Source of the DNA: an uncultured Chlamydiae bacterium
Lineage (GTDB): Bacteria; Chlamydiota; Chlamydiia; Chlamydiales; JAJFMA01
Assembly (NCBI GenBank): GCA_963713615.1
Contig: CAVQMM010000001.1
Span: forward strand, 698,708-762,707
Direction of reading: 5' to 3'
Length of the DNA stretch: 64,000 nt
Shown here: in pieces, positions 5,286 to 42,688 of the stretch
Numbering within the stretch: the stretch's first letter is position 1
Layout of the letters: each line of letters begins with the position of its first letter
Translations under genes and position numbers: made by a program
Notes under the pieces: generated by a model
Database searches by the model: none
The model's input: the letters and a program-made list of their open reading frames with translations, nothing else
Told to the model about the DNA's origin: nothing

Positions 5286-5489
5286 GAGGATTTAGGAGTA
5301 ACACGGATGAACACGGATCTAGGAGGATAGGATTTTAGAAAATTAGCACGAATTTTTCCCACGAAACAATTAAAATGGGTTTAAGATGGTTTTCGAGATT
5401 TTTCACTCCTATCCTCCTAAATCCTCCTAGATCCGTGTGCATCCGTGTTACTCCTAAATCCGTGTCACTACCAAATCTGTGTGCATCCT
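5275..5489. repeat. Family-1 long palindromic intergenic element, copy A
   Basis: Left arm cacggatctaggaggatttaggagtaacacggatgaacacggatctaggaggatagga. Right arm is its near reverse complement ctcctatcctcctaaatcctcctagatccgtgtgcatccgtgttactcctaaatccgtg. The left arm supplies the last codons and stop of the 3927..5285 CDS. Confidence 0.85.
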
Positions 5490-10490: not shown

Positions 10491-13400
10491 ATGGAAAAAA
10501 TTAAATTGAACATGCACAGAAACTCGAAAAACGAGGGCTTTCCAAATGGGAGCTGGCCAGGGTATATGCCGACTCATTTTTCTTTTTCATTAGCCTATGA
10601 AAAGTTGCAAAATTGGCAATCGCGTTTCCCCTCTCTCCAGGATGAGCGTATTTTCAAAGATTTGAATCTGCTCTATTTGTCAGCCTCAGAGAAATTCCTG
10701 GATCACCGCAACGCGACGCATCTGGCTCGGCTAACACTGTCAATTCACTTTGTTCAAAAATCGCTTCAGAGGTCCTTTGCCCTTTCTTCGCATACCCGTC
10801 ATCTTGAAATCAAATGGATTCCTGCCGACCTCTCCTTTCCATTTTCTTCTAAGGCTGTCTTGGGATGTTTGGTAGGCTTTAACGTGATCAATCGATATGA
10901 ATTATTTGATGAAGAAAATGTTAGATTGGTAATCAAAAAAAATTACCCATGGTCAAAGATTGTTAAAGATAGCTTTTATAGCCATGTTCTGACTAATAAA
11001 AATCTTAAAATTATGTACTTTGAGATTGAGAAAGAAGATGCTTCTTTTTTTTCATTAGCTGAACGCCATGCCTTTGCTAGCAACTTGAAGAGCCAGATCA
11101 GAGGGAGCTTTCAAAAGCTTGCTCCTACTGTCTTCATGAGGCGTAACGAAGAAGAAGTCTACAAGACGATACTGACCTTGAGTCGAGAAATTCATTCAGT
11201 GGGCGATATGCCGCAGGTCTGGATTTCTTTTGAGCAACGCATAGAAGACGAGATCGTGTTTCTCGTTATTCTAGTTTATGTATCCTCTAATAGTGACCCC
11301 ATTTTGCCTGAACCTTTCACCTCTTCTGGAGATTACACCCTTGTTTCGGAGCGGCAGGTTAATGTGAAGCGGATGGAAGAGCACTTTATTAGGGCGCATG
11401 TGCTTCGTTTACATCTTAAGCGTACTTTGCCTTTCCTGAGGTCTGACAGCTCGCTCAACTTCTACGCGTGCAGGCAGAAGGCTGTCTCGATTATGACTTC
11501 TGCTATTGGAGAATTTCGTGACTACAATGGGGGCGCTCTCATAACACAACAGGAGCTACTGGAGAATTTCAAGAGAAGCTTCCCATTACTTGCCGCTAAA
11601 GATCCTGAGCTTATGGAAACGTTCTTCTATGGACTCACCCCTTTGGAAAAGCAAGCTCTGCTACCGGATGTCACGCTTGCCACACTTTTCCAGTATTTTT
11701 TGAATCATCAGTCGAGAAAGCTACCGACAAACCAGCCCTTTATATTTGAATTTTTTAGGAACGAACATGAAACTTACATGACCGTACAAGGGGTGGATAA
11801 ATCTTGGAAAGAGCTTATTTTAGAGACTCTTGAGAGGCGCGAATTTAGAAAATGCGATCTTGCATACACGGCTGTTACTAGCTCCGATAGTTTCTTCTTC
11901 CAAGCTGTGTTTTCTCACCAAAAAGATGGTGAGATTTTGATACAGGAAATAGAAAAACAGCTGGAGGAGCGATGCAAGGCAGTCAAAAGGAAACGGAGTC
12001 TGCGTATCGGGGGGGAATATGCGCTGGTTTCTCTAGACCCTCGAATAGGTGGAGACCTGGTTTCCAGCCAGACCTTAAAGCTGCTCTTTGAGGGCCTAAT
12101 GCGTATTGGTAAAGGTGGCCAATTGGAAAATGGCATAGCCGAATCAGTGAGTGTTTCCGACGACTTTAAACAATATATTTTTAAACTTCGTCCTGCGCGA
12201 TGGAATGACGGAACCTTCGTTACAGCTCACGATTTTGAATATTCTTGGAAGAAGATTCTCTCGCCAGCTTTTGAGACAACGTCTGCCTGCTTGTTTTATC
12301 CGATTATGTGCGCCAAGGAGGCCAAGGAAGGAAAGGTTTCTCTGGATCGGGTAGGTATTGCGGCTCTTGATGAACGTACGTTGAGGGTTGACCTCGCTCA
12401 CCCCACACCCTATTTTCTAGAACTGACCGCTCAATCGATTTGCTACCCTGTGCATCGAGGGATGGATCTGAAATCTCCTCAATGGCCGTATCAGGTAGGA
12501 CATAGTTATCCTTGTAATGGACCCTTTCAGCTAGCAATCAACGACCATAATCACCAGACCTATCGCTTGGTAAGAAATCCAGCCTATTGGGATGCTAACG
12601 CAGTTATTCTGGATGAAATCTTCCTGACACAAATGAACCCTCACCAAGCTTATCGCGCCTTTCAAAATGGAGAGCTGGACTGGATCGGTAATCCTTATGG
12701 AGGTTGGCATCCGTTTTATGTACCTCAGCAAGATGAGCGAATCATCTCTATTCCGAACGCATCGACCTATTGGCTTGAGTTAAATACATTAGACCCAGTG
12801 CTTAGACATCCTAAGGTGCGCCAAGCATTAGCTCGGGTGGTTGACCGCTCGCAATTAATTTCCGATGCCTACCTTTCCCTGACCCCGGCTTACTCTGTGT
12901 TATCAGAGAATGCATACTATAGTCCGCAAGCCTCTTTTCCACAGCAGGACGTGGAGGTTGCCCTGCAGCTTTTGCAAGAGGGTCTTCACGATCTAGGATT
13001 ATCCAAAGCAGAACAAGTATCATTGCAGCTGACGTTTCATCCTGGTGGATTTCAAGAAAGGATAGCCCTGCTTTTAACGAAGCAATTTCAGGATCTTTTG
13101 AACATTGAGTGTCGCCTTTACCCTTTGAGCTGGGATCTCCTTTTTTCTAAACTGGCTAAGAATGAATTTCAGCTGAGTTTGACAGGTTGGATACCTCGAA
13201 CTAGCGATCCCATTACAACCCTAAACCACTTTCAAAAAAAACTTGATTTTACGAATTGGGACGATCCTCTATTTCACCAATGGCTAAGCTTAAGCGACCA
13301 AGAAATCAATCACTCTCAACGCCTGATCTATCTGATGCTTGCAGAAGAAAGACTGTGCCAAGAAGTGCCAGTAATTCCGCTCTTCCATCTAACTTATCAG

Positions 13401-13496
13401 GCCCTTGTTAGAAGAGGTTTTCAACTCACTCACTTCTATTCAACAGACTTAGCCAGTATCGACAACCAAGAAACCTGTGGCATAAAAAATGGGTGA
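10491..13496 (+). CDS. Family-5 (OppA/DppA-like) solute-binding domain fused to a ~500-aa N-terminal domain of unknown function; no N-terminal signal peptide seen
   Basis: C-terminal half (from about LRIGGEYALVSLDPR) has SBP_bac_5 hallmarks: TLKLLFEGLMR, ARWNDGTFVTAHDFEYSWKKIL, YRLVRNPAYWD. The N-terminal half is unrecognisable and hydrophilic at its start. Confidence 0.75.
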   Translation: MEKIKLNMHRNSKNEGFPNGSWPGYMPTHFSFSLAYEKLQNWQSRFPSLQDERIFKDLNLLYLSASEKFLDHRNATHLARLTLSIHFVQKSLQRSFALSSHTRHLEIKWIPADLSFPFSSKAVLGCLVGFNVINRYELFDEENVRLVIKKNYPWSKIVKDSFYSHVLTNKNLKIMYFEIEKEDASFFSLAERHAFASNLKSQIRGSFQKLAPTVFMRRNEEEVYKTILTLSREIHSVGDMPQVWISFEQRIEDEIVFLVILVYVSSNSDPILPEPFTSSGDYTLVSERQVNVKRMEEHFIRAHVLRLHLKRTLPFLRSDSSLNFYACRQKAVSIMTSAIGEFRDYNGGALITQQELLENFKRSFPLLAAKDPELMETFFYGLTPLEKQALLPDVTLATLFQYFLNHQSRKLPTNQPFIFEFFRNEHETYMTVQGVDKSWKELILETLERREFRKCDLAYTAVTSSDSFFFQAVFSHQKDGEILIQEIEKQLEERCKAVKRKRSLRIGGEYALVSLDPRIGGDLVSSQTLKLLFEGLMRIGKGGQLENGIAESVSVSDDFKQYIFKLRPARWNDGTFVTAHDFEYSWKKILSPAFETTSACLFYPIMCAKEAKEGKVSLDRVGIAALDERTLRVDLAHPTPYFLELTAQSICYPVHRGMDLKSPQWPYQVGHSYPCNGPFQLAINDHNHQTYRLVRNPAYWDANAVILDEIFLTQMNPHQAYRAFQNGELDWIGNPYGGWHPFYVPQQDERIISIPNASTYWLELNTLDPVLRHPKVRQALARVVDRSQLISDAYLSLTPAYSVLSENAYYSPQASFPQQDVEVALQLLQEGLHDLGLSKAEQVSLQLTFHPGGFQERIALLLTKQFQDLLNIECRLYPLSWDLLFSKLAKNEFQLSLTGWIPRTSDPITTLNHFQKKLDFTNWDDPLFHQWLSLSDQEINHSQRLIYLMLAEERLCQEVPVIPLFHLTYQALVRRGFQLTHFYSTDLASIDNQETCGIKNG

Positions 13497-14851: not shown

Positions 14852-15043
14852 CGATGTCCTGCAATATACCGTAACTTTTTTGAGAGGCATGAAACATGAG
14901 AGCTCCATAACGTTAAACCTAGAATGGACAGTTCAAAACATCATTAATACCGATAAATCAAAACGTCAGTACTTTTGACGGTTTTGAACTGTCAGATAGG
15001 CCTCAACCTAAGAAGCCCTTTGGGCATATATTTCAGTGCTTTA

Positions 15044-15345
15044 GGGCCTCACAATTATCACTCGGCGCGCAGCGCTTTGGAGTGCGTGTCGCTCGCGACC
15101 GCTTTGGATTTGGGTGAACTAGGCATTGCAAGAAACGTAACCTTTCGCTCTAGGGGTAACTGTGGGGGTTTAAGCCTCCAAAGAACGGTGCGCGATTCAA
15201 TAGGCTCGCCCAAATCCAAAGCGGTCGCGAGCGACACGCACTCCAAAGCGCTGCGCGCCGAGATACGATTGTGAGGGCGCAGTTAGTTGCTTAAGTTGAT
15301 GCCTATGACTCCAAAGCGCTGCGCGCCGAGATACGATTGTGGGGG
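15044..15345. repeat. Family-2 palindromic element (~70-bp arms) plus an extra direct copy of the terminal word ctccaaagcgctgcgcgccgagatacgattgtg
   Basis: Left arm cctcacaattatcactcggcgcgcagcgctttggagtgcgtgtcgctcgcgaccgctttggatttggg. Its reverse complement lies at 15208-15278. The word is repeated at 15309-15345. Confidence 0.85.
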
Positions 15346-15374
15346 CTTAGGAAGGGGTAAAATCTGTGTCTCCT

Positions 15375-21684: not shown

Positions 21685-21880
21685 TCTAAAATGGTTCTTG
21701 GGAAGAATTGGGGCGCTTTGGAATCACAATCGTCAATCGGCGGTGAAAATTCCTAATTCTTTTTTAGCGTTACTTTCGGATATTGGCGACGCAGTCGGTT
21801 GGGGCTCCAAAGCGCTTCGCGCCGATTGACGATTGTGATTCCAAAGCGCCCCAATTCTTCCCAAGAGCCTCTAAAATGGA
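21685..21880. repeat. Family-2 related palindromic element
   Basis: tctaaaatggttcttgggaagaattggggcgctttggaatcacaatcgtcaatcggcg pairs with cgccgattgacgattgtgattccaaagcgccccaattcttcccaagagcctctaaaatgga. The inner segment gttactttcggatattggcg.cgcagtcggttggggctccaaagcg is shared with 26984-27030. Confidence 0.8.
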
Positions 21881-21966
21881 CTTTAATACGATAGGCAGGA
21901 TCGCTTCGCGGCATGATATTTAGGATACTCCATAGAATCCTCCAAACAGAATTGGTTCTCTTTTCC

Positions 21967-22126
21967 GGCCTTATTCACCTTTGCGGTCAGTTTTCGGTGG
22001 ACTGCAAAAGGATCGTCTGTCGCGTTTTGCTCCTCGGACATAGCTGGCGCTATGCCCTCGTCACAAACCACGACATCCGACCTTTTTCGTCCGACCGAAA
22101 TTCTGACCGTAAAGGTGAACAAGGCC
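21967..22126 (-). mobile_element. MITE (160 bp, ~35-bp terminal inverted repeats), copy 1, flanked by 8-bp direct duplication TCTTTTCC
   Basis: TCTTTTCC lies at 21959-21966 and 22127-22134. The interior is identical (as reverse complement) to copy 2 at 51493-51653 except in one terminal ~35 nt. Confidence 0.85.
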
Positions 22127-22301
22127 TCTTTTCCTTTATCATGCATATCAGGCGTATCCCATTTATGTTTTTTGACTCACGCCAGCCTGTGTAGTCAAGT
22201 CCTACAAAACCGGATGAGCCTGAAAACTAAAACAGATTCAACACAAAAATAAATCATTAATTAAAATAAACAATTCAATCTACGTTATTAATTACAATGT
22301 T

Positions 22302-22310
22302 TGGTATAAT
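22302..22310 (+). promoter_or_regulatory. Putative extended -10 promoter element TGGTATAAT upstream of the RasGEF gene
   Basis: TGnTATAAT consensus in an AT-rich leader. A second TAGTATAAT lies at 22314-22322. GTGAGG SD-like sequence sits 5 nt before GTG 22347. Confidence 0.35.
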
Positions 22311-22346
22311 AACTAGTATAATTGCAGTATTTTTTGTGAGGCTGCT

Positions 22347-24722
22347 GTGGAAGCTCAAAGTTTTAACCCGAATCTATCTTCATTGAGGCGATCAACCGAT
22401 GTGCCTCAGCCGTCCATAGAAAAAAAACAAGTAGAGCAGAGCGAAAACGTAAAAAAGACCTCAAGCCTGAGCCGATCGGGAATAGGAAGCTTGGGCAAGG
22501 CATTCTCAGATAATGTAGGCAAGAGGATGGCTAGTTTCCCCTCGATGCGGTTGCCGAGCAAACTCTTTTCTTCAAATAATGTTCAGACACCCAGACCAGC
22601 GGCTCCCCCGCGTCCCGCAAGTCTTCCCTCGCGTCCTGCAAGTGCGGAACTTGGACCAGCACGTACCCCGCCCCCCAGACCAGCACTTACCGCGCCATCC
22701 AGACCAGCACCTAACCCGCGTCCCGCAAGTCTTCCCTCGCGTCCTGCAAGTGCGGAACTTGGACCAGCACGTACCCCGCCCCCCAGACCAGCACTTACCG
22801 CGCCATCCAGACCAGCGGTCCCCCCTCGTTCCGCAAGTGCGGAACAAAAGCCAGCAGTTCCAGCCAGGCCCAATAAATTGCAAATGGCATTTTCAAAGAA
22901 TCCTGTGCGAAGTCAAGAACGCTACAAGACGATTGAACAATTAGGGAAAATCAAAAATGTATTGAGTGAATGTGTAGAGAAAAACAAAAAGCCCTATGTC
23001 GGTAGCGATGGTAAGTTATCCGCCCGTTCTGCAGGATCTGGTTTGATCGGGCAGCGTGGCCGTTCCGAAACAACCCAAGCTGGAATGGATCACATTCTAT
23101 CGGTCATAGACAAAGCCTCGCAAGCAGGTATGTCAGATGTTAAAGGCGGAGGAAAGACGTTGGACCTGCTTGCCAGTTTACGAACCTTACCGCAGGTTGC
23201 GGCTCGCATATCAGTTGATCGCGAATTTGCTGCGCGGTTTCAAGCTGTTACGACAAACGCCACAATGGCGACAGCTAATGAGGCAGCTGGTGCGGCAGCG
23301 TTAGCAAAACCCAGGAGCACCTCGCAGGTGATAAGTGATGTGTTGCAGGAGGGGGATACAGCTACCGCTGATCTGCTCATCACCTCGCATCGCAATAATG
23401 ATGAAACGCTCGATCTATTTGGAAAGGTATTGGCTCATATTGACAGCATGCCGGAGGGGCCAGCAAAGACCGTAGCCTTAGAAAGTGCGATTGCACTTGC
23501 AGAACGCTACCTTGCTGACGGGAGTAGTGTCCCATTGCAGGGAAGCGAACGAGAAAAGCTTGGAGCACAGCTAAAAAAACTATCTGACAAGGCGGCAGCT
23601 AGCGATGATCCCTATCTACAGGCTGGGGCGCAACGACTTAACCAAGCCGCTAGCGTTGCGCTTACACCTCCTTCACCAGCCCCACAGCCTGGTCAAATGC
23701 TGGATGCTGTGAATAACCTGAAAAAAGCTCCCACCGCAGAAAACGCTCGTAAAGCCTTGGCAATGCTAAACCATCCGGCTGCACAGGCCGCTACACAGGC
23801 CCTCGTCAAAGAGCTTGAGAGTCTTGAGGCTAGCCTTAAGCAACCTCATACGAAAGAAGAAAAAGCAGAGATTGGCGCTCAAATTAAAAGTCTTGAAGCA
23901 GATAATCCTGCTTTACAGCTGCGTGCGGAGTTATCAAATTATGCTAATAGAAACCCGCCACCAATGGATTTCAACAAAATGAGTTCCAGTGAGATCTCGA
24001 AGGCTATTTGCAATTCGATGGCTAGCAGCTTCAGTCGTATTAAACCGGCTGAAGCAGATAGGCTGGGTTGGTCCAAGGAAGCGAAAATGGAGACCTCGCC
24101 AAATCTTATAGCGCACATAAAACTGTTCAATGATGTTTCGACATATGCGGCACATCAGATTCTGCATGCCCCCCCAGGTAAGGAACATGAGGTCGCTACA
24201 AAGATAATCAACGCAGCACATGAAGCGATGCAATCCGGTAACTATGATGCTTCTATGGCCCTTTTATCAGCTTTAAATTCAACCCCTATTTTTCGAATGA
24301 AAAACAAGGTAACTGAGAAGCTTTCTCCAGAAACGAAGGCAAAATTGGAAGAAATAAAGGGGATTACTAATAATACCAAAAGCTATTCCCTGTTGCGGGA
24401 GACAATGGGAAAACACAAGGGACCCGTTACTCCCTATGTCGGTATGTACCTCACCGACCTCACCTTTATGATGGATGGTAACCCCAATACAAAGAAAGGA
24501 GCTCTACAGGATGGAGGGGATGCCGTTTTCCTGAACAAGAATCAAATGGCTGGCGGTGTAAAGAACAAAATCATGGACTTTCAGGGTAGCCAGGCCGACC
24601 AAACGTATGAGACTAATTCCGATTTTGAATTAGCAATAGGTTTGGTTTCGCTACGTAATGACGCAGATGCAGATTCATTATATAATCGATCGATGCAAGT
24701 AGAACCCCGACCATCATCGTGA
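22347..24722 (+). CDS. Eukaryote-like RasGEF (Cdc25-homology) domain protein with N-terminal Pro-rich tandem repeats; putative secreted effector
   Basis: The C-terminal ~230 aa carry RasGEF hallmarks: FSRIKPAEADRLGWSK, PNLIAHIKLFNDVSTYAAHQIL, NYDASMALLSALNSTPIFRMKN, and PVTPYVGMYLTDLTFMMDGNPN (consensus P.IP..G.YLTDL.F..EGNP). GTG start. Confidence 0.8.
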   Translation: MEAQSFNPNLSSLRRSTDVPQPSIEKKQVEQSENVKKTSSLSRSGIGSLGKAFSDNVGKRMASFPSMRLPSKLFSSNNVQTPRPAAPPRPASLPSRPASAELGPARTPPPRPALTAPSRPAPNPRPASLPSRPASAELGPARTPPPRPALTAPSRPAVPPRSASAEQKPAVPARPNKLQMAFSKNPVRSQERYKTIEQLGKIKNVLSECVEKNKKPYVGSDGKLSARSAGSGLIGQRGRSETTQAGMDHILSVIDKASQAGMSDVKGGGKTLDLLASLRTLPQVAARISVDREFAARFQAVTTNATMATANEAAGAAALAKPRSTSQVISDVLQEGDTATADLLITSHRNNDETLDLFGKVLAHIDSMPEGPAKTVALESAIALAERYLADGSSVPLQGSEREKLGAQLKKLSDKAAASDDPYLQAGAQRLNQAASVALTPPSPAPQPGQMLDAVNNLKKAPTAENARKALAMLNHPAAQAATQALVKELESLEASLKQPHTKEEKAEIGAQIKSLEADNPALQLRAELSNYANRNPPPMDFNKMSSSEISKAICNSMASSFSRIKPAEADRLGWSKEAKMETSPNLIAHIKLFNDVSTYAAHQILHAPPGKEHEVATKIINAAHEAMQSGNYDASMALLSALNSTPIFRMKNKVTEKLSPETKAKLEEIKGITNNTKSYSLLRETMGKHKGPVTPYVGMYLTDLTFMMDGNPNTKKGALQDGGDAVFLNKNQMAGGVKNKIMDFQGSQADQTYETNSDFELAIGLVSLRNDADADSLYNRSMQVEPRPSS
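22591..22850 (+). repeat. 108-bp (36-codon) tandem repeat, 2 full copies plus partial flanks, encoding RPASLPSRPASAELGPARTPPPRPALTAPSRPA
   Basis: cgtcccgcaagtcttccctcgcg... starts at 22611 and again at 22719, and the copies look identical over about 100 nt. Confidence 0.9.
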
Positions 24723-24903: not shown

Positions 24904-24938
24904 TAAATATATTATTATTTAGTTATAAGGTGATTTGT

Positions 24939-26075
24939 ATGGGCATGGACTATAGCACTTCACATCACACTTCACATCTTCCGCAGGGTGAGTATAGTAG
25001 CGCCCATAAACAAGACCTTCCTGAAGTTAAAAAACTTAGAAGCGAAGCTGAAAGCAATTTAAAAATAAAACACGCTTCATTAGAAAAAAATAATCAAAAG
25101 ATGGATTATTATAGCAATAGATTGAGTGAAGTGAATGAAACAATAACAATAGTCTCACGATCTTTAAATGATAAGCAAGCTGAAATTGATAGAACACAAA
25201 AAACTTTAAAAGGTCTCAAGTTCACTGCTTTTGGCAGTAAGTTAATAGCTAAGCATAAGATAAAAAAATATACAGCTGAATCTAATAAAATTAAAGACAG
25301 TCTAAGATCTCTTGGTGTTTCTAGAGGTCAATTAAATTCAAAGTTATCGTCTGTAACAAATAAGAGTTCTATTGCAGAGTCTGAGATAGAATTGATAGAT
25401 AAACATATAAGCGACATTGATGAACTTGGAAAGTCAATTTCAAATGAATTAGATTCAGAGAAGAATGAATTAGATGACCTTGGTGGTAGGGTAGATAAAT
25501 CCGACTCGGAATCAGCAAAACGACTTTACAGCGATTATAAGGAAACGTATTCGAATTATAGTGACACTAAACTAGAGATTGTAGAAAACAAGATTAAAAC
25601 GTCTTCAAAAGAAATAGAAATACTTGGCAATGCTATTAGCATGGAAAAAACGCGTGGTGAAATAGATGTATTAAAAGGAGGGATTTCCAATTGTGAAATT
25701 AACATAGCAATAAATATAGAATTCATGAAGTCAAAAAAGAAAAGCGACCCTGCTTATGCCGCTGCCAAAAAAAAGATAGAAAGCTTCGAATCGCGGCAAG
25801 CAATTCTAAAAGAGGGATTAAAGACTAAAGAACAGCAATTAAGTGAGCTAAAATTAAATAACAATAAATTAACTGGCGAGCTTGACCAGCTAATGGGCAA
25901 GGCTGGTGATCTTAAAACAAAATTTGATGACTATAAATCAAAATTACCTGCAATTAAATTGCAAATAGAAGAAGATATAAAAAAAAATAGTGTCGATTCA
26001 CAAAAGACTCCGGAGAAAACAGCTGCAGCTGTTTCTGGTTTCATGCAATCCATCTTTAGTTTTTTTTCGAAATAA
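24939..26075 (+). CDS. AT-rich coiled-coil protein, paralogue A (short hydrophobic C-terminal tail)
   Basis: Heptad-rich, Lys/Glu/Asn/Ser-rich sequence, collinear with the 27220..28338 product (for example KFTAFGSKLIAKHKIKKYTAES vs KFTDFGQKNASKEKIKKFAGES, KKSDPAYAAAKKKIESFESR vs KKSDPAFAITQQKIDHFEDR). ATG 24939 is preceded by AAGGTGA. C-terminus AAAVSGFMQSIFSFFSK. Confidence 0.7.
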   Translation: MGMDYSTSHHTSHLPQGEYSSAHKQDLPEVKKLRSEAESNLKIKHASLEKNNQKMDYYSNRLSEVNETITIVSRSLNDKQAEIDRTQKTLKGLKFTAFGSKLIAKHKIKKYTAESNKIKDSLRSLGVSRGQLNSKLSSVTNKSSIAESEIELIDKHISDIDELGKSISNELDSEKNELDDLGGRVDKSDSESAKRLYSDYKETYSNYSDTKLEIVENKIKTSSKEIEILGNAISMEKTRGEIDVLKGGISNCEINIAINIEFMKSKKKSDPAYAAAKKKIESFESRQAILKEGLKTKEQQLSELKLNNNKLTGELDQLMGKAGDLKTKFDDYKSKLPAIKLQIEEDIKKNSVDSQKTPEKTAAAVSGFMQSIFSFFSK

Positions 26076-26711: not shown

Positions 26712-26840
26712 AATCCGAGTTCGAGCCCGAGCTCGTGCCCGATGCACTTCTCCCAATTCCGCTCCCTCCTTCCTTCCTTTGTTACGAATTTGTACCCCCA
26801 CTAACGCCTTGTTACTTGCGATCGCTTTTCGTTCCTTGCG

Positions 26841-26913
26841 ACCGCACTTCTAAGTAACTCAAAAGGTTGGCTGGCGCAATTTCCTATGTGGCGCAGATCA
26901 TTCCATGACTGCG
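26841..26913. repeat. Family-4 repeat (partial copy)
   Basis: accgcacttctaagtaactcaaaaggttggctggcgcaatttcctatgtg matches 48207-48258 with 2-3 differences. Confidence 0.75.
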
Positions 26914-26983: not shown

Positions 26984-27052
26984 GTTACTTTCGGATATTG
27001 GCGGCGCAGTCGGTTGGGGCTCCAAAGCGATGCGCGCCGAGATACGATTGTG
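26984..27052. repeat. Family-2 repeat (partial copy)
   Basis: gttactttcggatattggcggcgcagtcggttggggctccaaagcgatgcgcgccgagatacgattgtg shares its first half with 21770-21815 and its last half with 15241-15273 and 15309-15341. Confidence 0.8.
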
Positions 27053-27177
27053 AATCAAGAAATATATCATATTTACTCCATACAAAACTTCACTAAGACA
27101 TAAATCCAATCTCTCGCATTTTAATTGCTAATTCTCTAGGTAATGTTAAAGACACTGAAAGAATATTTATTATTAAT

Positions 27178-27219: not shown

Positions 27220-28338
27220 ATGGGATTAGAGTCCAGTACTCCATATGCCCCCAAGAGTATTAGTTCAGGTCAAAGCGAGCCGTTGGGGATCAAAAATTTT
27301 AGAGATGAAGCTGAAAAAAAGATTAACGTGAAAACTGCGTCAGTAGAGAATAATAAACAACACATTGAGACCTTACAGAATAAGCATGATCGGATAGATG
27401 TCGACATAAGTATGATATCTAGACAGTTGGCTTCAACAGAGTCATTACTGGTTAATAATCAAAAAAAACTTGCTAGTTGTAAATTTACTGACTTTGGCCA
27501 GAAGAATGCTAGTAAAGAGAAGATTAAAAAATTTGCGGGTGAGTCCGTTAATTTAAGAAGGATTATAAAAGAAAATGGTGATGTTAAAAGAAAGATAGCT
27601 TCAAAGATGTCATTATTAAGTGCTAATAGTTCGGTAGAAACTGCAGAAATAGAGTTGCTAAAGAATCAGATAAAAGATATCGACGGTATGTCAAAGTCAA
27701 TTACAAGTGAAGCGGAATCCGAAGCTAAGGTATTGGACAGTCTTTTTGATAAGGCTGACAAATCAGATTCCACATCGGCAAAAATCTCTTATAATGAATG
27801 CTTGGATATACATTCCAAGATCGAAGATGCTAACGTGAAACTGTTAGAAAGTAAAATAGCAACATCTTCGAAGCAGATAGATTTAACTGTTGCTGACATG
27901 AAGATTGATAATGTTAGTTCGGAAATAGAGGCATTAAATGGAGCAATATCACACAGTACTGTTAATATGTTGCAAAATAAAGCTTTTTTGACAACGCTGA
28001 AGAAAAGTGACCCGGCTTTTGCTATTACTCAACAAAAGATAGATCACTTCGAAGATAGATTATCTAGCTTGTCGAACGAATTAACTGTAAAAATAGAAGT
28101 GTTAAGTAGGCTAAATGAAAATAGATCTAATCTAAATATAGAGATGAAACAGCTAGCTAATGAAGAATCAGAAATTACGGCGCATATAGATGATTGTAAG
28201 TCAAAGTTATCCATCAAGAAATTGGAGCTAGACGAGGCTGTAAAAGCTGCTGATCTCGCGAAGTTAGAAAAGAACTCGGAAAATACAGCTTCATCTGTTT
28301 CTAGTGTCATCAAATCGATATTTGGAATATTTTCTTGA
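27220..28338 (+). CDS. AT-rich coiled-coil protein, paralogue B (short hydrophobic C-terminal tail)
   Basis: Collinear similarity to 24939..26075 along the whole length. Same MG(L/M) start and the same hydrophobic C-terminus style (ASSVSSVIKSIFGIFS). Confidence 0.7.
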   Translation: MGLESSTPYAPKSISSGQSEPLGIKNFRDEAEKKINVKTASVENNKQHIETLQNKHDRIDVDISMISRQLASTESLLVNNQKKLASCKFTDFGQKNASKEKIKKFAGESVNLRRIIKENGDVKRKIASKMSLLSANSSVETAEIELLKNQIKDIDGMSKSITSEAESEAKVLDSLFDKADKSDSTSAKISYNECLDIHSKIEDANVKLLESKIATSSKQIDLTVADMKIDNVSSEIEALNGAISHSTVNMLQNKAFLTTLKKSDPAFAITQQKIDHFEDRLSSLSNELTVKIEVLSRLNENRSNLNIEMKQLANEESEITAHIDDCKSKLSIKKLELDEAVKAADLAKLEKNSENTASSVSSVIKSIFGIFS

Positions 28339-30536: not shown

Positions 30537-31385
30537 TCAAAGACTATTGATTTGCAGCATCCAATGCCTATCATAGGCACCTTGTACGGGCGACGAAGGA
30601 TCTAGGCGTCGGAACCCTTTGATCGGGACTTTTTCTAGACGAACGATGTGATCAGACCTGACATGATGCTGACACAATAGCCATCCAATACGCTTGGCTG
30701 ATGCGGCATCGGACTTTACAGCATAATCAACAAGTTGGGCGACGTTGATCTTTTGAGCCGCTGCGGAAAAAGCAGACTGAACGTTGGCCCATCCCCCGCA
30801 ATACTGTGGCATGGCTACAGCATCGAGCAAGGTGCGTTCTAAGTCAGTGATGGCGACCTTGGCGCCTTCTAGGTCAAGGATTTGAATACCATAATAGCGC
30901 TCGGGTTTGATTTGCACAAAATCGTAGAGCAGATCGCCGACAGGGTAGATCCGCCCGCGTGCATCGTTTTTTTTGCGAATTCTGGGGAAGGAGCTGCCGG
31001 TATGGGTAAGAACATAGATATAGGAAGAGCTATTGGTAACGAGTTCATAATGTTGAAGGGCTGTCCAGAGGCTAATGGCAGCGGGAGAAGCTAGTGCCAT
31101 GGCGATTTCAAATGGATGAGCTGCCGCCCCAGGAGGCAAGGCGCACCGAATGGCAAAGACACCTCGTCTGATCGGAATGATCCATCCTTCTAGTTCCAGC
31201 TGGTCTAAGGTTGCTGGCAAATCTTTTGGTGCTAGCCCAACATCTTTTGTTAGACTATTTAGGTGTTGTGTAGTGAATACCCGATGGCCCGAATCACTAA
31301 GACGCCGGAGGAGCTCCAAACCTAACACCTGTTGCTTAATCTGGCGCATCGGAATAATCGTAGTGATTTGGTCTGTAGAGTCCAT
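30537..31385 (-). CDS. AbiEi-family (COG5340-like) antitoxin/transcriptional regulator, no cognate AbiEii toxin gene adjacent
   Basis: N-terminal wHTH ending in IPIRRGVFAI, then AAISLWTALQHYELV, and LERTLLDAV with AKRIGWLL in the C-terminal domain. This is the typical AbiEi layout. Confidence 0.65.
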   Translation of the reverse strand: MDSTDQITTIIPMRQIKQQVLGLELLRRLSDSGHRVFTTQHLNSLTKDVGLAPKDLPATLDQLELEGWIIPIRRGVFAIRCALPPGAAAHPFEIAMALASPAAISLWTALQHYELVTNSSSYIYVLTHTGSSFPRIRKKNDARGRIYPVGDLLYDFVQIKPERYYGIQILDLEGAKVAITDLERTLLDAVAMPQYCGGWANVQSAFSAAAQKINVAQLVDYAVKSDAASAKRIGWLLCQHHVRSDHIVRLEKVPIKGFRRLDPSSPVQGAYDRHWMLQINSL

Positions 31386-32237: not shown

Positions 32238-33080
32238 CTAAAGGCCCGGAAGTTTTTCGCGGTAGCGCCAGAATGCTTCACCATAACTAAAAGTCAGATG
32301 CGTACCTCGGTCAATGGCTTCCTTAGCGCGCAAGAAAAAGTATAGAAATCCCCGGTCATAAAGGCATTCAAGGTCCAAGTTTGGAGTATCGCTGTGATTA
32401 ACGAACCGAATTTCATTCCCACCTTTGTTGGCATCAATCACAAAAATGCTCCATGACCAAAAGCGTGTTGGGTAATGCAGGCAATAGGCATTGTGATCTG
32501 GACGCCGTCGCGAGAGGGGACGGACTACGCCGGTGTAGGTTCCGACGAATTCACCCTTAGCAAGGTCGGTATTGGTGAAAAGACCGTAACCCAGCTCTTC
32601 GCTGATCCAGGCCACAGTAGTATTGGCAACAGCTCCGTTGAGGATCTTGTGGCGATAGAATTCATAGTCGTTATCTCTTTCCATGCCTAGGATGCCCAAA
32701 CGGCATATCCATGGACACTGATGTACTACAATTTTTAGGAGATCATAGCTTGTGAAAGTCAAATACGGAAGGTAAGGAACGCCAAAGAGTTCCTCAAATT
32801 CATGTGGCAAATAGCTCTTTGCTACAGAGTCACCTCTGCGCACAACCTTAGTAGTATGAGGTGCAGCTGATGTAAGTCGTGGTAGCCACGTTGTACGATT
32901 TAGCAGTCGGGCCAGTTCTAGAGGTTTTAAGCCTAATCCATTGGTGGTGTCACATAAAGCCGGATCATAAGGTTCGTTTAAGTCGTTGTCGATGATCGCC
33001 TGATGCAAAGGGCTTTCACCTTTTGCCAGTCGTTCCCTGAGCTGTTTTGTTCTTTGCGTGAGCATCTGTAATATTTTCAT
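32238..33080 (-). CDS. SET-domain protein-lysine methyltransferase (eukaryote-like)
   Basis: GGNEIRFVNHSDTPNLDLECL ... GTHLTFSYG are the SET NH(S/C)xxPN and post-SET-proximal ELxF/Y-type blocks. Upstream GYGLFTNTDLAKGEFVGTYTG. Confidence 0.8.
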   Translation of the reverse strand: MKILQMLTQRTKQLRERLAKGESPLHQAIIDNDLNEPYDPALCDTTNGLGLKPLELARLLNRTTWLPRLTSAAPHTTKVVRRGDSVAKSYLPHEFEELFGVPYLPYLTFTSYDLLKIVVHQCPWICRLGILGMERDNDYEFYRHKILNGAVANTTVAWISEELGYGLFTNTDLAKGEFVGTYTGVVRPLSRRRPDHNAYCLHYPTRFWSWSIFVIDANKGGNEIRFVNHSDTPNLDLECLYDRGFLYFFLRAKEAIDRGTHLTFSYGEAFWRYREKLPGL

Positions 33081-33173: not shown

Positions 33174-34022
33174 ATGCGGGTGAATATGATACTCCAGAAG
33201 CTTCGGCTGCTTTTTTGGACCTCTTTAGGTTTCGCCGGCACAATAGCTGCTGAGCCGCAGCGGTGGGTGGTTTATTACAATAACCAAGCCACATACGAGG
33301 ACCTTCGAGCGTATAATCCTTTAGTTTTTGATAGCGAGACCCATCCTCCATTAAAGCCCTTTCTAGCTAATGACAAAACGACATTAGCCTATATCAGTCT
33401 TGGAGAAGCAGCCACGCATAATTCCTACTTTGCCGATGTTAAGGCGCAGGGGTTGTTGTTAGGGGAAAATTCTAGCTGGCCAGGCAGTTATTTCATCGAT
33501 CTACGCAATCCGCTATGGACGAAGAGAGTTATTGAAGAAATCATTCCTTCAATCCTGTTTCAACGGTTTAGTGGACTGTTTCTCGATACTCTTGATGATG
33601 CTGACTATCTTGAGCAAGAGGATCCGGTAAAGTATAAAGGAATGCGTGAAGCGGCTATAAAGCTCGTTAGAACCATTCGTAAAAATTACCCGATGATTCC
33701 TATCATGATGAACCGTGGTCTCGATATCGCGCCTGCTGTCGTTCATGATATTAACATGATTTTGGCAGAAGCTACCTGGTCATTCTATGATGTTAAGAAA
33801 AAGGCCTATGAACACGTTCCCCAAAAGGAGTATCAGGCATATGCTGATCGTCTTAGGCTTCTGGAGCATGACAACCCCACTTTAACAGTCTATACCCTTG
33901 ATTATTGGGACCCTACCGATGCCAAGGGCATTAGTGCTATCTATCATCTCCAGCGCGAAAATGGCTTTATTCCTTACGTGTCAACGCGAGATCTCCAAAA
34001 GATCATACAGGAACCCAAATAA
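33174..34022 (+). CDS. pelA: Secreted PelA-N-type glycoside hydrolase (TM1410/GH114-like TIM barrel), stand-alone
   Basis: Signal peptide, then WVVYY...LAYISLGEA...WPGSYFIDLRNPLW...FSGLFLDTLDDADYL...IMMNRG. This is the pattern of the endo-alpha-1,4-polygalactosaminidase-like / PelA hydrolase domain. First gene of the pel-like cluster. Confidence 0.7.
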   Translation: MRVNMILQKLRLLFWTSLGFAGTIAAEPQRWVVYYNNQATYEDLRAYNPLVFDSETHPPLKPFLANDKTTLAYISLGEAATHNSYFADVKAQGLLLGENSSWPGSYFIDLRNPLWTKRVIEEIIPSILFQRFSGLFLDTLDDADYLEQEDPVKYKGMREAAIKLVRTIRKNYPMIPIMMNRGLDIAPAVVHDINMILAEATWSFYDVKKKAYEHVPQKEYQAYADRLRLLEHDNPTLTVYTLDYWDPTDAKGISAIYHLQRENGFIPYVSTRDLQKIIQEPK

Positions 34023-34026
34023 ATCT

Positions 34027-36300
34027 ATGCTGCGTTTGATTCTGACATTTTTCTTGCTCGTTACCAACTATGGGTGGAGTGCTTCAGTTGCTGAAGATAG
34101 GGCTGAAGTGGTACCTAGGACAATTATTACCTTGTACGACAGTAAGAAGTACAACGATGTTAGTGATGCAGCTGTTCATCAATTCCTTGAAATGCCTCTA
34201 AATCACTTGGGGTATCGCGTCTGGTTCCATGATATCCTGAACGGTCTTCCTGACCTTACCGATCATAAAGATGTTGTAGGGGTCCTCACCTGGTTTCCGG
34301 GAGGAATGGTCGTTCCAGATCCTAAAGCCTACCTAAAGTGGGCGCAAGCTGTTATAGATATGGGTAAGCGCTATGTGGTCGTTGGTAACCCGGGATTTTA
34401 CCCCGCTGATGGAAGTGTTTCACCAGACCTTATGAATGCCTTCTGGACAAAGCTAGGGTTGTATGATCAGGCAGTTTTTGTTTCCGCGACTTATGACGTT
34501 AATCTGATTAAGTTGGACCCCAAGATGCTTGACTTTGAACGTCCCTACGGGGGTGTTCTGCCAGGCTATCATATGATCAAGAGCCAATCGGATACTGTCA
34601 AAGTCTATCTAGCGGCGCGAGTTCGTAATGACCCAGGCAGTGACGCTATATTGGTAGCTACCAGTCCAGTCGGTGGTTTTATTGCCGAAGAATACGAGGC
34701 TTATTGGGACAATATTCGTGATAACCATCGACAATGGTACGTCAACCCCTTTCATTTTCTTCGCGTCGCTTTTGGCGATTCGGGCTTTCTCAAGCCCGAT
34801 ACGACGACATTGAATGGAAGGCGTATTTTTTATCATCACATCGACGGCGATGGATGGATTAGCCGTACGCAGATCGCGGAATATAAAAAGACTCGAGCCT
34901 TATGTGCAGAGGTTATTTATAGAAATGTTCTAAAACCTTTTGATGACCTTCCCTGTTCCGTGGGCCCTATTGCGGCGGACCTGGATGATAGTTGGGTAGG
35001 AACGGCAGAGTCGCGGCATTGGGCAAGAGAGATTCTGAGCTTACCAAATGTTGAGGTAGTGGTTCACACGTTAAGTCACCCCTTTCAGTGGGGATTTTTC
35101 GCAAACTATACGATGGCTGAGGAGGAACCCTTCCTATATTTATATCCGTTTGGAAGTTGGGAGGGTTCTGGCATTTGGACGCGCATAAAGCACTATTGGA
35201 TGTTGCTGTTGCACAAGCCTAACGAAGAAAATAATGATGGTGGCAAGCCCCTTGACGAAGGATATGACTTACCTCGTGCTTACGCTAATAAGCCCTTTAA
35301 CCTCCACGATGAGGTGTATGAAGCCGTTAATAAAGTTAATGAGGTTGCTCCTCCTGGGAAGAGAGCCACTTTATACACATGGTCAGGTGACTGCGTTCCT
35401 TTTGAAAGTGCAGTAGAAGATTCACGAAAGGCTGGTGTTCTGAATTTAAACGGTGGCAATACCCGCTTTGATTCTGAATCGCTGTCCTATGGATGGGTCA
35501 GGCCTTTGGGACGCCAAGCCGGTAACCAGCGGCAAATCTATGCTTCTAGCAGTAATGAAAATATCTATACCGAGGACTGGACCGCTAAGTTCTACAACTA
35601 CAACATGCTGCCGCAGACATTCAAAAATACTGATGTTCCCGTCCGCGTCAAGCCAATGAACCTCTACTACCACATGTTCTCGGGTGAGCGCCGTCCAAGC
35701 CTTGATGCTCTCTTGTCCAATGTGGCTTATGTGCGATCGCAGGAGATTATTCCAATCACTGCAACCGCCTTTGCTAGGATTGCGGATAGTTTTTATAACG
35801 TAGAGATTATTGAGCTGAGCGATGGTCGCTGGACGGTAGAGAACAGGGGGACGTTGCAGACACTGCGGCGGGATCACAGTACACTTGATTCTGTTGATTT
35901 TGGACGGTCTGTGGGGGTAATTGGGCAGCGCCACCTATTAGGTAGCTTATATGTGGCTTTAGATCCCGTTGTGGAGAACCCCATTGTCGCCTTTAGTGCC
36001 TGTACGGATTGTGATGAAGAGCCTCATGCTAATCGACCATACGTGATTGAAAGTCGCTGGCAGATTCAAGACGTAAATACCGACGAGCGGAATGTCCTTT
36101 CCTTTCTAGCTCATGGCTATGGACAAGGAAGTATGACGTGGCGGGTGCCACAGCCAGGTACATACGTCATTCAAGTGACCAAGGGTAGCCAGACACCTAC
36201 AGTGCAACGCGTGCATACCGATTCTGTTAGGCTTAATTTTGTTGTGGGCGATGGTACTACCCTAGAACCCGTCATTGTGACCATAGTGAGGGCTTCATGA
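34027..36300 (+). CDS. pelA: Secreted PelA-C-type polysaccharide deacetylase (CE4-like metal motifs), stand-alone
   Basis: Own signal peptide MLRLILTFFLLVTNYGWSA from ATG 34027, 4 nt after the upstream stop. FYHHIDGDGW (Asp-x-Asp motif) and VVHTLSHPFQW (H-x-x-x-H) fit CE4 motifs 1 and 2. Position matches the pelA deacetylase half. Confidence 0.65.
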   Translation: MLRLILTFFLLVTNYGWSASVAEDRAEVVPRTIITLYDSKKYNDVSDAAVHQFLEMPLNHLGYRVWFHDILNGLPDLTDHKDVVGVLTWFPGGMVVPDPKAYLKWAQAVIDMGKRYVVVGNPGFYPADGSVSPDLMNAFWTKLGLYDQAVFVSATYDVNLIKLDPKMLDFERPYGGVLPGYHMIKSQSDTVKVYLAARVRNDPGSDAILVATSPVGGFIAEEYEAYWDNIRDNHRQWYVNPFHFLRVAFGDSGFLKPDTTTLNGRRIFYHHIDGDGWISRTQIAEYKKTRALCAEVIYRNVLKPFDDLPCSVGPIAADLDDSWVGTAESRHWAREILSLPNVEVVVHTLSHPFQWGFFANYTMAEEEPFLYLYPFGSWEGSGIWTRIKHYWMLLLHKPNEENNDGGKPLDEGYDLPRAYANKPFNLHDEVYEAVNKVNEVAPPGKRATLYTWSGDCVPFESAVEDSRKAGVLNLNGGNTRFDSESLSYGWVRPLGRQAGNQRQIYASSSNENIYTEDWTAKFYNYNMLPQTFKNTDVPVRVKPMNLYYHMFSGERRPSLDALLSNVAYVRSQEIIPITATAFARIADSFYNVEIIELSDGRWTVENRGTLQTLRRDHSTLDSVDFGRSVGVIGQRHLLGSLYVALDPVVENPIVAFSACTDCDEEPHANRPYVIESRWQIQDVNTDERNVLSFLAHGYGQGSMTWRVPQPGTYVIQVTKGSQTPTVQRVHTDSVRLNFVVGDGTTLEPVIVTIVRAS

Positions 36301-39300
36301 AGCGCTCATCGACTATGGGGATTCTTATTTTTGTGGTTGCCCTTGCGGTGGCGGTGAGCATCCTTCTGTTTCCTTTTTACGAACAAATATCGTTGATGTT
36401 GGCTGATGAAGGTCACTATAGCGAGGCGTTACAGCGGTATCAGGGTGAGCTGACTGGTGGAGAAGATACCTTGCCAGTCTTAGTATCAACTGTAAAAATG
36501 CTCGACGAACTATCTAGAAGCCAGGAGGCTATGAATTTAGCCACCAGCTTTGTAGCCAACCATCCTGATAATCCCCAAGCCGTTGCTTTCTTGCTGCAGC
36601 TATACAAGGATTCTAATCGTGAAAACCAGTTTCTTAACCTATTCTTGAGCCATGGTCCCAAGCCTGCTTCGGAGAGCTTATTGCGTGTAGCACAGCAAAT
36701 TTGTGAATCCTTAGGTGATGTTAGGGCAGAAATCCCTATTTTAGCAGAGCTTGTTTACCAACACGATGGGACCCCTAAAGAGCACTTTCGTCTTGCCTAT
36801 TTCCTAGCGCGGGAAGGCAACACCGAGAAGGCCGCCGATGCTATCCAGGCCATGATCAATAAATTTCCTGTCGATGCCCTCTCGAATCTTCAGATAGACC
36901 TAGCCGTTCGTATTCTGATCAGACAAAACCGAATAGATGAAGCGAATAAACTAGCTGCGAGGGTATTGAAGTCTACAAAGCATCGGTCTGAGTACTTTGA
37001 TATCGTGTCTATTTTTGTTGAGGAAGACCATCCACGCGAAGCGCTAGCTATTTTGGATATGCTACCTGAAAAAGTGCGCGAAAGTGAATTGGGGTTGGAG
37101 GTACGTCTTTCGCTTTTGGACTCATTAGGAGAAAGCAAAGCCTTCTATGAGCTACTGACTAGACTGATAGCTACCCACCGTCTCACGCCTCGCTTGTTTG
37201 CCGATGCCTTGCCTATTGCGTTGGATGAAGCTCCCACAAATTTGCTGCTGCAAATGGTGGGGGCTATAGATCTTCACAAAATCAACCCACAAAATCTTGA
37301 AGAGATAGCAACCCGATCTGTGGATAAAGATGAGCCTATAGTCGCTAAACAGATTTATAATAAACTAGGCACCACCTATCTGGAATCCTTTCCAGCCCTT
37401 CTGCTCGCGTTGGCCTTGGGCATGGGCGATATGACTGAGGTGGATGCGACTCAACGATATGACTCTATAGCTACCCGACTGACTGATCGAGAAAAGGCCT
37501 TTTTGGCGCCTCTTTTTGAAATTCGTGGAATGGACAAGCTTTCCCATGCCACATTGGCCTCTATCAAGTCCTTGAAGGGCTTTACTCCTCAAGAGGTCTT
37601 TGCCCTAGGCCTAAAATATGTCGGCTTTGATATGGTCGATCAGGGACAGGTACTTATTGATGCCTATGCTAGTGGCCTTGCGGTTCCTCCTGAAGAGGTT
37701 AAGGCAGCTACCGTAATATTGAAAATCGGTAAAGGGGATGTACAACCTGTTGTCGATTGGATGATCAGTGAGAAAGAAATCTCTGAAGCGATCCTCAAGG
37801 GCTTTTTCTCCATCGCCTTTGAAAAAAAATACGCTATTATTGCTCAGATGTCTGCAGATCGGTTGCTAAAACATTGGCCATCGGAGCTCTACCGTTCCTA
37901 TGTAGCAGCTGCACAGGCTATTGGCGACCATGAAGAAGAAGGGCTAAAGACATTACGTGAGATGTTTGCAGCAGGAGAACCTGTAGCAGGCCTTTACGTG
38001 GATGCCCTTGCCTATCGCGAACGCAACCAGCCCAATCTTGAACCTGAGCTTGTTTATGTGGTGACCGAGGAAGCGCATAACCCCACCGTCTCTCCCCACT
38101 TGCTTCGTCGCCTCGGGTACATGCTTATCAATGAGCATCTCATGGGATTAGCCTCTCCACTCTTTGAACGACTTGCCGAACATGGTTCATTAGTCAGCGA
38201 TGACGTTCAAGCTCTGTTATATACCTGGGGAACACATCCCACACCTGTCCAGCAGGAATGGATGGTAAAGCGCGCCGCTGCAGCTCCCTCCAAGGAAGAA
38301 ATTAAATGGCTTACCTATTTTGCTGAGGCCGATAAACCCCAGCTGGTGCTGGAGACGATTCATAGGTCTCCAGAGGGCAATCGTGGAGATAGAGATATTC
38401 TAGACATGCATTTTCAAGCCCTTGTCACCTTAAAGTACAAGGAAGAGGCCACCAAACTGCTTGCCTCTATGCTAGAGGATGAGACGGATATCAAGCGTCT
38501 TAAGTCTCTGGGAGCTATTGCCCAAGGCGGTGATCTGACTGAAGGCGCTGAGTCCATTTTTAAACGTATCTTGGAAGTAAATCCCGATGACCTCGATACA
38601 CTAAAAACGATGGGCATCTTGGCGTATGGACGTGGTGACGTCATCACCGCGCGCGAATATTTGGAGCACTATCTCGATCTTGCCGAAGGCGATTACCTTG
38701 TCAATTTCTATTATGGTGAAGTCCTAGAGTATTATGAGCGACGTTGTGACGCTTGGTGCTTTTATGAGGTTGCTCTTGAGCAGGTAGAGAGCCTTCAGAC
38801 GCCTACTTTTGATGAAAACCTCATGCGGGCCCACTTATTGGTTCGTCTAGAGTACTTTCAATCGGCGATCGACTGGTACTTTCGTCTTATTGATGAGCAT
38901 CCGAAGCAAATCGGCCTGTATAACGACCTAGCAGACCTTTATATCGATCGCGAGTGCTACTATAAGGCGGGTGCCATCATCGCTCTCGGGCTACAAGAGG
39001 CTGAAGATCCGGAGTTACCACCGGGAGAGCGTACTGCTGTAGTGCTTCTTCTCACGCAAAAGGTACGCTTGCTGAAAGAGAACAATTGCATCTGTGAGGC
39101 CTTGGCCTTAGCGGCCGAACTTGTTGAAGAATACCCCGAAAACTCTGAGGTGCTTGAGGTAGCTGCCGATCTTCAAGTACGCATTGGAAATTGGGGCGAA
39201 GCGCTGGATCTTCTTGATTCCGCCATCGATGTTGCCTCTGAGCGCGCCATCTTGTGGGATGAACGCGATACTGTCCTAGTCGATCACCAGCCCTACTGGA

Positions 39301-40211: not shown

Positions 40212-40229
40212 CAAGAGGGAGAGCCTTTA

Positions 40230-42676: not shown

Positions 42677-42688
42677 AAGGACTGACTA

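Follow-up and report, generated by a model that had tools for sequence, protein, structure and literature searches.

What is a Ras guanine nucleotide exchange factor (RasGEF) domain doing in a bacterial protein? The question is raised by a gene in a 64-kb window (the whole stretch of DNA analysed here) from an uncultured member of the Chlamydiae, which an earlier note had read as encoding a eukaryote-like RasGEF (Cdc25-homology) protein and a candidate secreted effector aimed at host small GTPases. Our analysis makes it probable that the product is a eukaryote-derived guanine nucleotide exchange factor (GEF) of the Ras family, and a candidate effector that a Chlamydiales-related peat bacterium would inject into its host.

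By both sequence and predicted fold, the C-terminal 245 amino acids (aa) of the protein are a eukaryote-type Cdc25-homology domain. The Pfam search that the earlier note proposed returned a highly significant match to RasGEF (PF00617) at aa 549-717 (115.4 bits against a cut-off of 23.1 bits, E=3.5e-33), covering profile positions 1-171 of 181. Phmmer comparison with PDB sequences placed the Cdc25 domain of RasGRF1 first (7.8e-20), followed by RalGPS1 (1.1e-17) and SOS1 (1.8e-13, over aa 548-788), with further matches to yeast-type Cdc25 and RasGRPs and a weaker one to Epac2. An AlphaFold2 (AF2) model of the protein, built on a 12-sequence alignment of the family described below, was confident over aa 190-791, with predicted local distance difference test (pLDDT) values mostly 85-97 for aa 546-790. 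Against isolated Cdc25 domains in Foldseek, this predicted rather than solved structure gave target-normalised TM scores (TMt) of 0.84 for 2ije and 0.85 for 3qxl, with a root-mean-square deviation of 3.2 A. The full model aligned with the combined Ras exchanger motif (REM) and Cdc25 portions of SOS1, SOS2 and yeast Cdc25 over ~500 columns at a TMt of about 0.68 (range 0.62-0.71). The sequence blocks quoted when the domain was first recognised (PVTPYVGMYLTDLTFMMDGNPN, FSRIKPAEADRLGWSK, LFNDVSTYAAHQIL and NYDASMALLSALNSTPIFR) are all present in the translation, and the RasGEF identity has been borne out by profile, PDB and fold comparisons alike. The order of similarity among PDB entries (RasGRF1, RalGPS1, SOS, then RasGRP, then Epac) hints, weakly, at a target of the Ras or Ral type rather than Rap.

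The protein has company. An exhaustive HMMER (phmmer) search with aa 180-791 against 1.84 billion representative sequences yielded 4310 matches, eight of them at E<=1e-30, and the top group consisted of proteins of 590-890 aa aligned over the region preceding the catalytic domain (here the middle region) as well as the domain itself. A profile hidden Markov model (HMM) of the middle region recovered 14 representatives among the best 150 matches, and the family comprises at least 14 clusters at 50% identity; the same HMM found no second copy in the window. The window open reading frame (ORF) matched this HMM at 300.8 bits (E=1.6e-91), the HMM alignment including the window protein. Independently of the HMM, phmmer with aa 180-791 aligned four members (P0005, P0007, P0008 and P0017) across both the middle region and the catalytic domain. 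All 12 aligned family members match PF00617, and all follow one order: a variable N-terminus, module A, module B, a helical linker of variable length and the Cdc25 domain. Identity of the window protein to any member is 22-35% (E 5e-77 to 1e-23 over the middle and catalytic regions). From the sharing of modules A and B in this order, the window protein is a member of a Chlamydiales RasGEF-domain family. Besides the window protein, three members were traced to larger contigs, all among bacterial genes. One of the three (P0003) comes from a Chlamydiales-labelled metagenome-assembled genome (MAG), GCA_030679955.1, where a 161-kb contig encodes it as MDP1836780.1, 'RasGEF domain-containing protein [Chlamydiales bacterium]'; another (P0011) lies on a 143-kb contig amid ordinary bacterial genes. 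The assembly index has no entry for the exact window protein, a scan of metagenome contigs with the single window protein found no relative, and a word-indexed homologue search found one fungal RasGEF with the full-length query and none with the C-terminal domain alone.

In three other genomes the family occupies a conserved locus, in which the RasGEF gene is followed, in this order, by an unknown, secreted-looking protein of 365-471 aa, a 2-phosphosulfolactate phosphatase-type gene (2-ph_phosp) and a Na+/H+ exchanger. The 365-471 aa protein always comes after the RasGEF there; it has a hydrophobic N-terminus and is 43-50% identical between genomes. One genome carries tandem RasGEF paralogues, P0008 and P0005 (L017, 1592-3820 and 4025-6271); at loci L011 and L012 the gene is found from position 10001 onward. 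The window gene does not share this locus: lysC is on one side of it, and on the other are a coiled-coil ORF and msrA. That coiled-coil ORF, which lies downstream and encodes 381 aa, was considered as a conserved partner gene and rejected, being unrelated to the neighbour at the other loci. Chromosomal position does not, however, define membership of a protein family. Because the locus differs and the downstream neighbour is unrelated, the window gene appears to be a paralogue or relocated copy.

In GEFs of the SOS type, a helical hairpin is the element that pries open the nucleotide site, and the residues that matter there are known from the SOS-Ras structure literature. The hairpin motif of the window protein, YLTDLTFMMDGNP, aligned gap-free to SOS1 929-945 with HMMER, and residues were compared on this alignment with numbering checked against the SOS1 chain. 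Identical to SOS1 are W809, K814, S818-P819-N820, I825, N879, P882, R885, T935 and G943-N944-P945, and conservative changes occur at four positions (R826K, S881T, Y884F and E942D). SOS1 L938 is replaced by T, which is invariant in 12 of 12 aligned family members. Hairpin residues, on whose presence in a proper alignment the earlier note had staked its reading, are largely retained (T935 and the GNP triplet, with T at 938 and D at 942). These changes could nonetheless mark a secreted binder of Ras-family proteins without exchange catalysis, whether a decoy, a scaffold or a sequestering protein, or a protein that has drifted to a non-Ras target, the Cdc25 fold serving it as no more than a surface for binding. 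The replacements at 938 and 942 would fit such a binder, as would the wide variation of the Ras-contact positions R826, N879 and Y884 among family members and the long branches on which the family sits, its catalytic domains averaging 28% identity against 37% among non-family matches. However, position 938 is V in RasGRF1 and I in RalGPS1, and position 942 is S in RalGPS1; both proteins are active GEFs, so these two positions vary among active exchange factors. Conservation extends to the W/K/SPN block and to the hairpin motif TDLTF..[DE]GNP, and the window protein keeps more of the canonical residues than most of its relatives. We therefore regard a non-catalytic binder as improbable and hold to the reading of an exchange factor.

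The middle region ahead of the catalytic domain comprises three parts. Module A is confidently modelled by AF2 and conserved across the family alignments, and no relative of it was found by Pfam, PDB sequence or Foldseek searches. The linker varies in length across the family and is gapped in the alignment. Searched alone against PDB sequences, aa 185-545 gave no meaningful match. Profile comparison was more informative for module B. When the middle-region profile was compared by hhalign with an alignment of the 300 residues that precede the Cdc25 domain of 67 non-family RasGEFs (the named ones eukaryotic), module B was placed on residues 694-820 of one of them (P0031), whose Pfam RasGEF_N domain spans 693-795; the match thus begins at the domain boundary, RasGEF_N starting one residue earlier. 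The score of 20.5 compares with 11.9 +/- 1.9 (maximum 15.9) for 40 column shuffles and 14.0 for a reversed control, and the family motif LL..SHRNN..T.NL..DL pairs with the REM core FLLTYRSFTTP..LL..L..RY. From this profile comparison and the full-model Foldseek result, we tentatively consider module B a probable divergent REM domain, its similarity weak but registered. A REM domain is not universal among such GEFs, and RalGPS1 lacks one.

The N-terminus is of a different character. Its first 70 aa are Ser-rich, and no hydrophobic signal peptide or transmembrane segment was found, the Kyte-Doolittle 19-residue score peaking at 0.04 within the first 70 aa and at 0.92 over the whole protein. The SH3-ligand-like, PxxP-rich tandem repeats described in the earlier note (SH3, Src homology 3) proved real, with a 36-aa period and copies that are 91-95% identical. 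Proline makes up 28% of the repeat-bearing N-terminal region. Aa 84-175 contain 11 PxxP motifs, among which pattern matching picked out two of the class I (RTPPPRP) and four of the class II (PxxPx[RK]) SH3-ligand consensus. Judged by its sequence, the repeat is recently duplicated.

Where did the domain come from? After the family itself, the next-best matches are RasGEFs of Filamoeba, Anaeramoeba, Stygamoeba, Planoprotostelium and one fungus. When 147 catalytic domains were placed in a neighbour-joining tree, the family came out monophyletic with 45% bootstrap support, and its sister group among eukaryotes was not resolved. For a single origin of the family, the tree is weaker evidence than the non-catalytic modules that its members share. 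By its sequence relationships the domain is probably eukaryote-derived, and the donor lineage cannot be named from the tree because of the 45% bootstrap and the lack of a resolved eukaryotic sister group. The family would stand as a dated case in which a domain passed from a eukaryote to a bacterium and bacterial innovation then set in, in the form of added modules, tandem paralogues and a fresh proline-rich repeat.

A role for the window protein as a secreted effector is a reasonable inference, and we treat it as a candidate. Type III secretion is attributed to all chlamydiae, and a protein with no Sec signal could be exported by a chlamydial type III secretion system through its disordered N-terminus. 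Once in the cytoplasm of a protist host, the Cdc25 hairpin would displace GDP from a Ras-subfamily GTPase, and the resulting rise in GTP-bound Ras might perturb macropinocytosis, phagocytosis or membrane traffic to the benefit of the bacterium. In amoebae, macropinocytosis, phagocytosis and chemotaxis are under the control of Ras-subfamily GTPases, and an intracellular bacterium has to exploit or evade these processes. The proline-rich tail of SOS docks on Grb2; by analogy, the proline-rich repeats may dock on host adaptors with SH3 domains. A bolder version of this scheme, which we offer tentatively and doubt in its entirety, holds that environmental chlamydiae captured a complete REM-Cdc25 unit long ago from a protist host and turned it into an effector family with an added N-terminal module. 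The relocated peat copy, which would have gained its SOS-like SH3-docking repeat by recent tandem duplication, would then be a bacterial 'SOS mimic' that engages host adaptors and switches on Ras at membranes for uptake or vacuole remodelling. If true, no chlamydial effector would have been shown before it to act directly as an activator of Ras-subfamily GTPases.

An exchange factor might also work at home. Some bacteria encode Ras-superfamily GTPases, and the protein could serve a bacterial Ras-like GTPase in a eukaryote-like pathway instead of a host target, an idea that draws on the fact that no secretion apparatus or signal has been demonstrated in the window. Neither the scanned window ORFs of >=150 aa nor the called neighbours in the three other genomes include a Ras, Roc or Arf-type gene, however, and a long disordered N-terminus with SH3-ligand motifs would be sensible only with eukaryotic partners. 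All contigs to which the family could be traced are bacterial and linked to a Chlamydiales-labelled MAG, and the GEFs closest to it are those of protists. Such an intrabacterial role seems to us very unlikely beside that of a host-directed effector.

The gene itself is built as a bacterial gene. The GTG start called in the earlier note agrees with the ORF listing, and the choice is supported because the N-terminal 'SFNP' also occurs in family member P0017. The leader (22195-22346) is AT-rich as described, at 27.6% GC, with TGGTATAAT as its extended -10 match; a promoter scan of the leader found no -35 match. That eukaryotic DNA was misjoined to a bacterial contig, by assembly chimerism or host contamination, is scarcely credible: RasGEF domains are overwhelmingly eukaryotic and no single public contig across both gene junctions was recovered, yet the ORF is uninterrupted over all 791 codons with a GTG start, a Shine-Dalgarno-like motif and a sigma-70-type -10, its GC content of 49% is near the 46.6% of the window, it is flanked by the lys operon and msrA, and relatives with both non-catalytic modules lie inside bacterial contigs of 143-161 kb, so that eukaryotic contamination was rejected on gene structure and context. 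Each of four peat metatranscriptome runs yielded assembled fragments that match the gene with 0 mismatches; they cover 22486-22739, 23181-23409, 23470-24019 and 24502-24652, and the adjacent lys operon is almost uncovered in the same runs. These fragments suggest that the RasGEF gene is transcribed in situ.

Several observations weigh against an injected, catalytically active Ras GEF of a chlamydial bacterium. The export signal, the exchange activity and the target GTPase are all putative, and no secretion system, type III gene, chaperone or small-GTPase gene occurs within the 64-kb window. L938 and E942, the SOS1 residues usually quoted as catalytic, are T and D here. The proline-rich repeat is confined to the window protein, with no counterpart in the other aligned family members, and for this reason falls outside the conserved mechanism. 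Pfam RasGEF_N matches 0 of 12 family members even at E<=10, against 12 of 12 for RasGEF; the middle region alone found no match in Foldseek (best E=0.055, TM below 0.3); and the hhalign E-value is marginal, at 0.04 (0.008 with module B alone). The RasGEF_N search suggested in the earlier note came out negative with Pfam, with profile-profile comparison and the fold search of the full model hinting at a divergent REM-like module. The case offers a lesson for annotation, the REM-like part having been missed by Pfam. Metatranscriptome contigs may include carried-over DNA, and contig depth is a poor measure. Finally, the chlamydial placement comes from the labels of MAGs and from protein identities of ~45-70% rather than from a marker-gene phylogeny, and a Pel operon in the window is atypical of known chlamydiae and unexpected in an otherwise chlamydia-like genome.

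Comparison with known systems sharpens what is distinctive about the protein. With SOS1/2, RasGRF1, yeast Cdc25 and RalGPS1 it shares the catalytic fold and the hairpin motif, and with SOS also a proline-rich PxxP SH3-ligand segment alongside the catalytic module, placed N-terminally in the window protein; a REM-like module upstream is probable. It differs from eukaryotic REM-Cdc25 GEFs in having no DH-PH, histone-fold, PH, IQ or other eukaryotic regulatory domains, in a REM-like module too divergent for Pfam, in a longer REM-Cdc25 linker and in its bacterial gene structure and context. With the other Chlamydiales proteins named 'RasGEF domain-containing protein' it shares the same five-part architecture and a related host lineage, but it lies at another locus, is 22-35% identical to them and alone carries the 36-aa repeat. 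Of the bacterial GEF effectors that have been characterised, most act on Rho, Arf or Rab proteins. RalF (cited in PMC8442362), a Sec7-domain GEF for Arf, likewise uses a borrowed eukaryotic GEF domain to activate a host small GTPase, as is proposed here, but differs in GEF fold and GTPase family and has been characterised experimentally, whereas the window protein is known from sequence. The nearest named bacterial precedent, by annotation, is Legionella LegG2 (lpg0276), labelled 'Ras guanine nucleotide exchange' in an effector table comparing L. pneumophila with L. longbeachae (PMC2824747); RasGEF PF00617 is listed as a Legionella secreted-effector family (PMC8442362), and legG2 is among the genes in an Icm/Dot translocation screen (PMC2475511). 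LegG2 resembles the window protein in its PF00617 domain and in coming from an amoeba-associated intracellular bacterium, and differs in phylum and presumably in secretion system (type IVB versus type III), the two being compared by annotation, not sequence.

The literature search found no paper describing a chlamydial RasGEF protein, NCBI naming the family automatically, and no functional studies of RasGEF-domain effectors such as LegG2 were found in the literature searched. Two apparent sources were set aside: in PMC5451489 the term RasGEF is absent from the searchable main text, whose sole mention of Ras concerns host Ras signalling genes, and in PMC4103550 RasGEF occurs where a Dictyostelium paper is cited. 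Bacterial RasGEF-domain effector candidates are already known, and the window protein is, on present comparisons, a new and divergent member (<=35% identity). New here are the probable cryptic REM domain, module A with no relative, and the unique proline-rich repeat. A conserved chlamydial family, an intact-looking catalytic unit and transcript fragments in peat make a tractable entry point. Coordinates of the gene, its parts and the nearby repeats are given in Table 1.

Table 1. Features of the RasGEF gene and its upstream region (nucleotide positions in the window)
Feature	Position	Strand	Basis or remark
MITE-like palindromic element, 177 bp (MITE, miniature inverted-repeat transposable element)	21693..21869	.	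50-nt terminal inverted repeats, 98% complementary; upstream intergenic
Second MITE-like repeat	21965..22126	.	End 220 bp upstream of start codon; repeat search
TGGTATAAT, putative -10 (match to extended -10 promoter consensus)	22302..22310	+	Read from sequence
GAGG Shine-Dalgarno-like motif	22338..22341	+	5 nt before GTG; read from sequence
RasGEF-domain coding sequence	22347..24722	+	Complete, 791 aa + stop, GTG start; ORF listing
Predicted disordered N-terminal region, aa 1-189	22347..22913	+	AF2 pLDDT < 50
Proline-rich tandem repeat, 108 nt (36 aa) x 2.3 copies	22591..22838	+	Tandem Repeats Finder (TRF), repeat search
Module A, aa 190-320	22914..23306	+	Family alignments; long helix, beta-hairpin, helices; motif VL.EC..KKP.L..DG.L
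Module B, aa 321-441, probable divergent REM (RasGEF_N-like)	23307..23669	+	Motifs HRNN..T.NL..DL and YL..G.SVPVGG; hhalign
Helical, coiled-coil-like linker, aa 442-545	23670..23981	+	AF2 helices 448-535
Cdc25-homology (RasGEF) catalytic domain, aa 546-788	23982..24710	+	Pfam, PDB sequence matches, Foldseek
Predicted helical hairpin, aa 698-748, carrying YLTDLTFMMDGNP	24438..24590	+	AF2 helices 698-711, 729-748; SOS1 alignment

The surrounding genes speak to the identity of the host. Immediately upstream, on the opposite strand, lies a lysine/diaminopimelate (DAP) operon of lysC, dapA, asd, lysA and an LL-DAP aminotransferase gene, with msrA downstream of the RasGEF gene. The best matches of the LL-DAP aminotransferase (DapL) are 67-69% identical, the named one belonging to the Chlamydiales MAG GCA_030679955.1, after which identity falls to ~59% in scattered taxa; another close DapL comes from the same sample as family member P0011. 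Window DapL, ASD and PepN are 67-70% identical to genes of GCA_030679955.1 (PepN 70%), and the blocks dapA-asd-dapL and orf294-orf259-pepN-histidine kinase are common to both. That MAG also encodes family member P0003. A genome-collection scan with the aspartokinase gave distant matches only, and sequence words of the locus occur in many peat and soil metagenomes. From these gene comparisons we take the source to be an uncultured bacterium related to the Chlamydiales MAGs. The bacterial, intracellular-lifestyle context assumed in the earlier note accords with this synteny and with the closest non-family matches being amoebal or protist GEFs.

Several other genes in the window deserve mention. 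A SET-domain protein (32238-33080, minus strand; Pfam SET E=1e-16) is a second eukaryote-like domain in the window, and pathogenic chlamydiae are known to use SET-domain proteins as type III effectors. Coiled-coil ORFs at 24930-26075 and 27220-28338 (both plus strand) flank msrA and have only weak, below-threshold database matches, to coiled-coil families; the GC content of the first is only 33%, the window as a whole having 46.6%. Both are covered by metatranscriptome contigs and could be further effector candidates. The Pel-type exopolysaccharide operon (33174-46014) comprises a GH114 ORF, a PelB-like protein with tetratricopeptide repeats (TPR; 1304 aa), a GAF PelD-like protein, a TPR PelE-like protein, a PelF equivalog (456 bits) and PelG. 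Its GH114 ORF (33174-34022) overlaps an 800-aa ORF (33898-36300), and pelA may be split or frameshifted. Toxin-antitoxin type domains (SocA/Panacea antitoxin and AbiEi antitoxin C-terminal) are found in ORFs at 8-766 (plus strand) and 30537-31385 (minus strand). An 824-aa ORF (60929-63403, minus strand) joins an ABC-type substrate-binding domain to outer-membrane efflux (OEP) repeats, an unusual fusion, and adjoins HlyD- and AcrB-type efflux genes. In a 1001-aa protein (10491-13496, plus strand) the family-5 solute-binding domain occupies only the C-terminal half; over 945 aa it shares 34% identity with the product of a gene that a Chlamydiae MAG (L008) carries near its aspartokinase.

Short palindromic repeats are frequent in the window. 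The MITE reported 220 bp upstream of the gene was confirmed: the repeat ends at 22126, and its portion 21992-22126 recurs in inverted orientation, with 99% identity, at 51493-51627, within a palindromic element of 163 bp (51492-51654). In contigs from public peat runs, the repeat 21966-22126 appears with several differing flanks and at higher depth. The 177-bp element farther upstream has a related partial copy at 26984-27056 in the repeat search. Altogether at least five families of short palindromic MITE-like repeats occupy intergenic positions, which is dense for 64 kb, and the inverted arms of several are 40-115 nt long and 82-99% complementary. They lie at 5281-5461, 44219-44530 and 63387-63665; at 15042-15349; and at 56436-56696, with further pairs formed by 21693-21869 and 26984-27056, by 21965-22126 and 51492-51654, and by 26838-26890 and 48205-48257.

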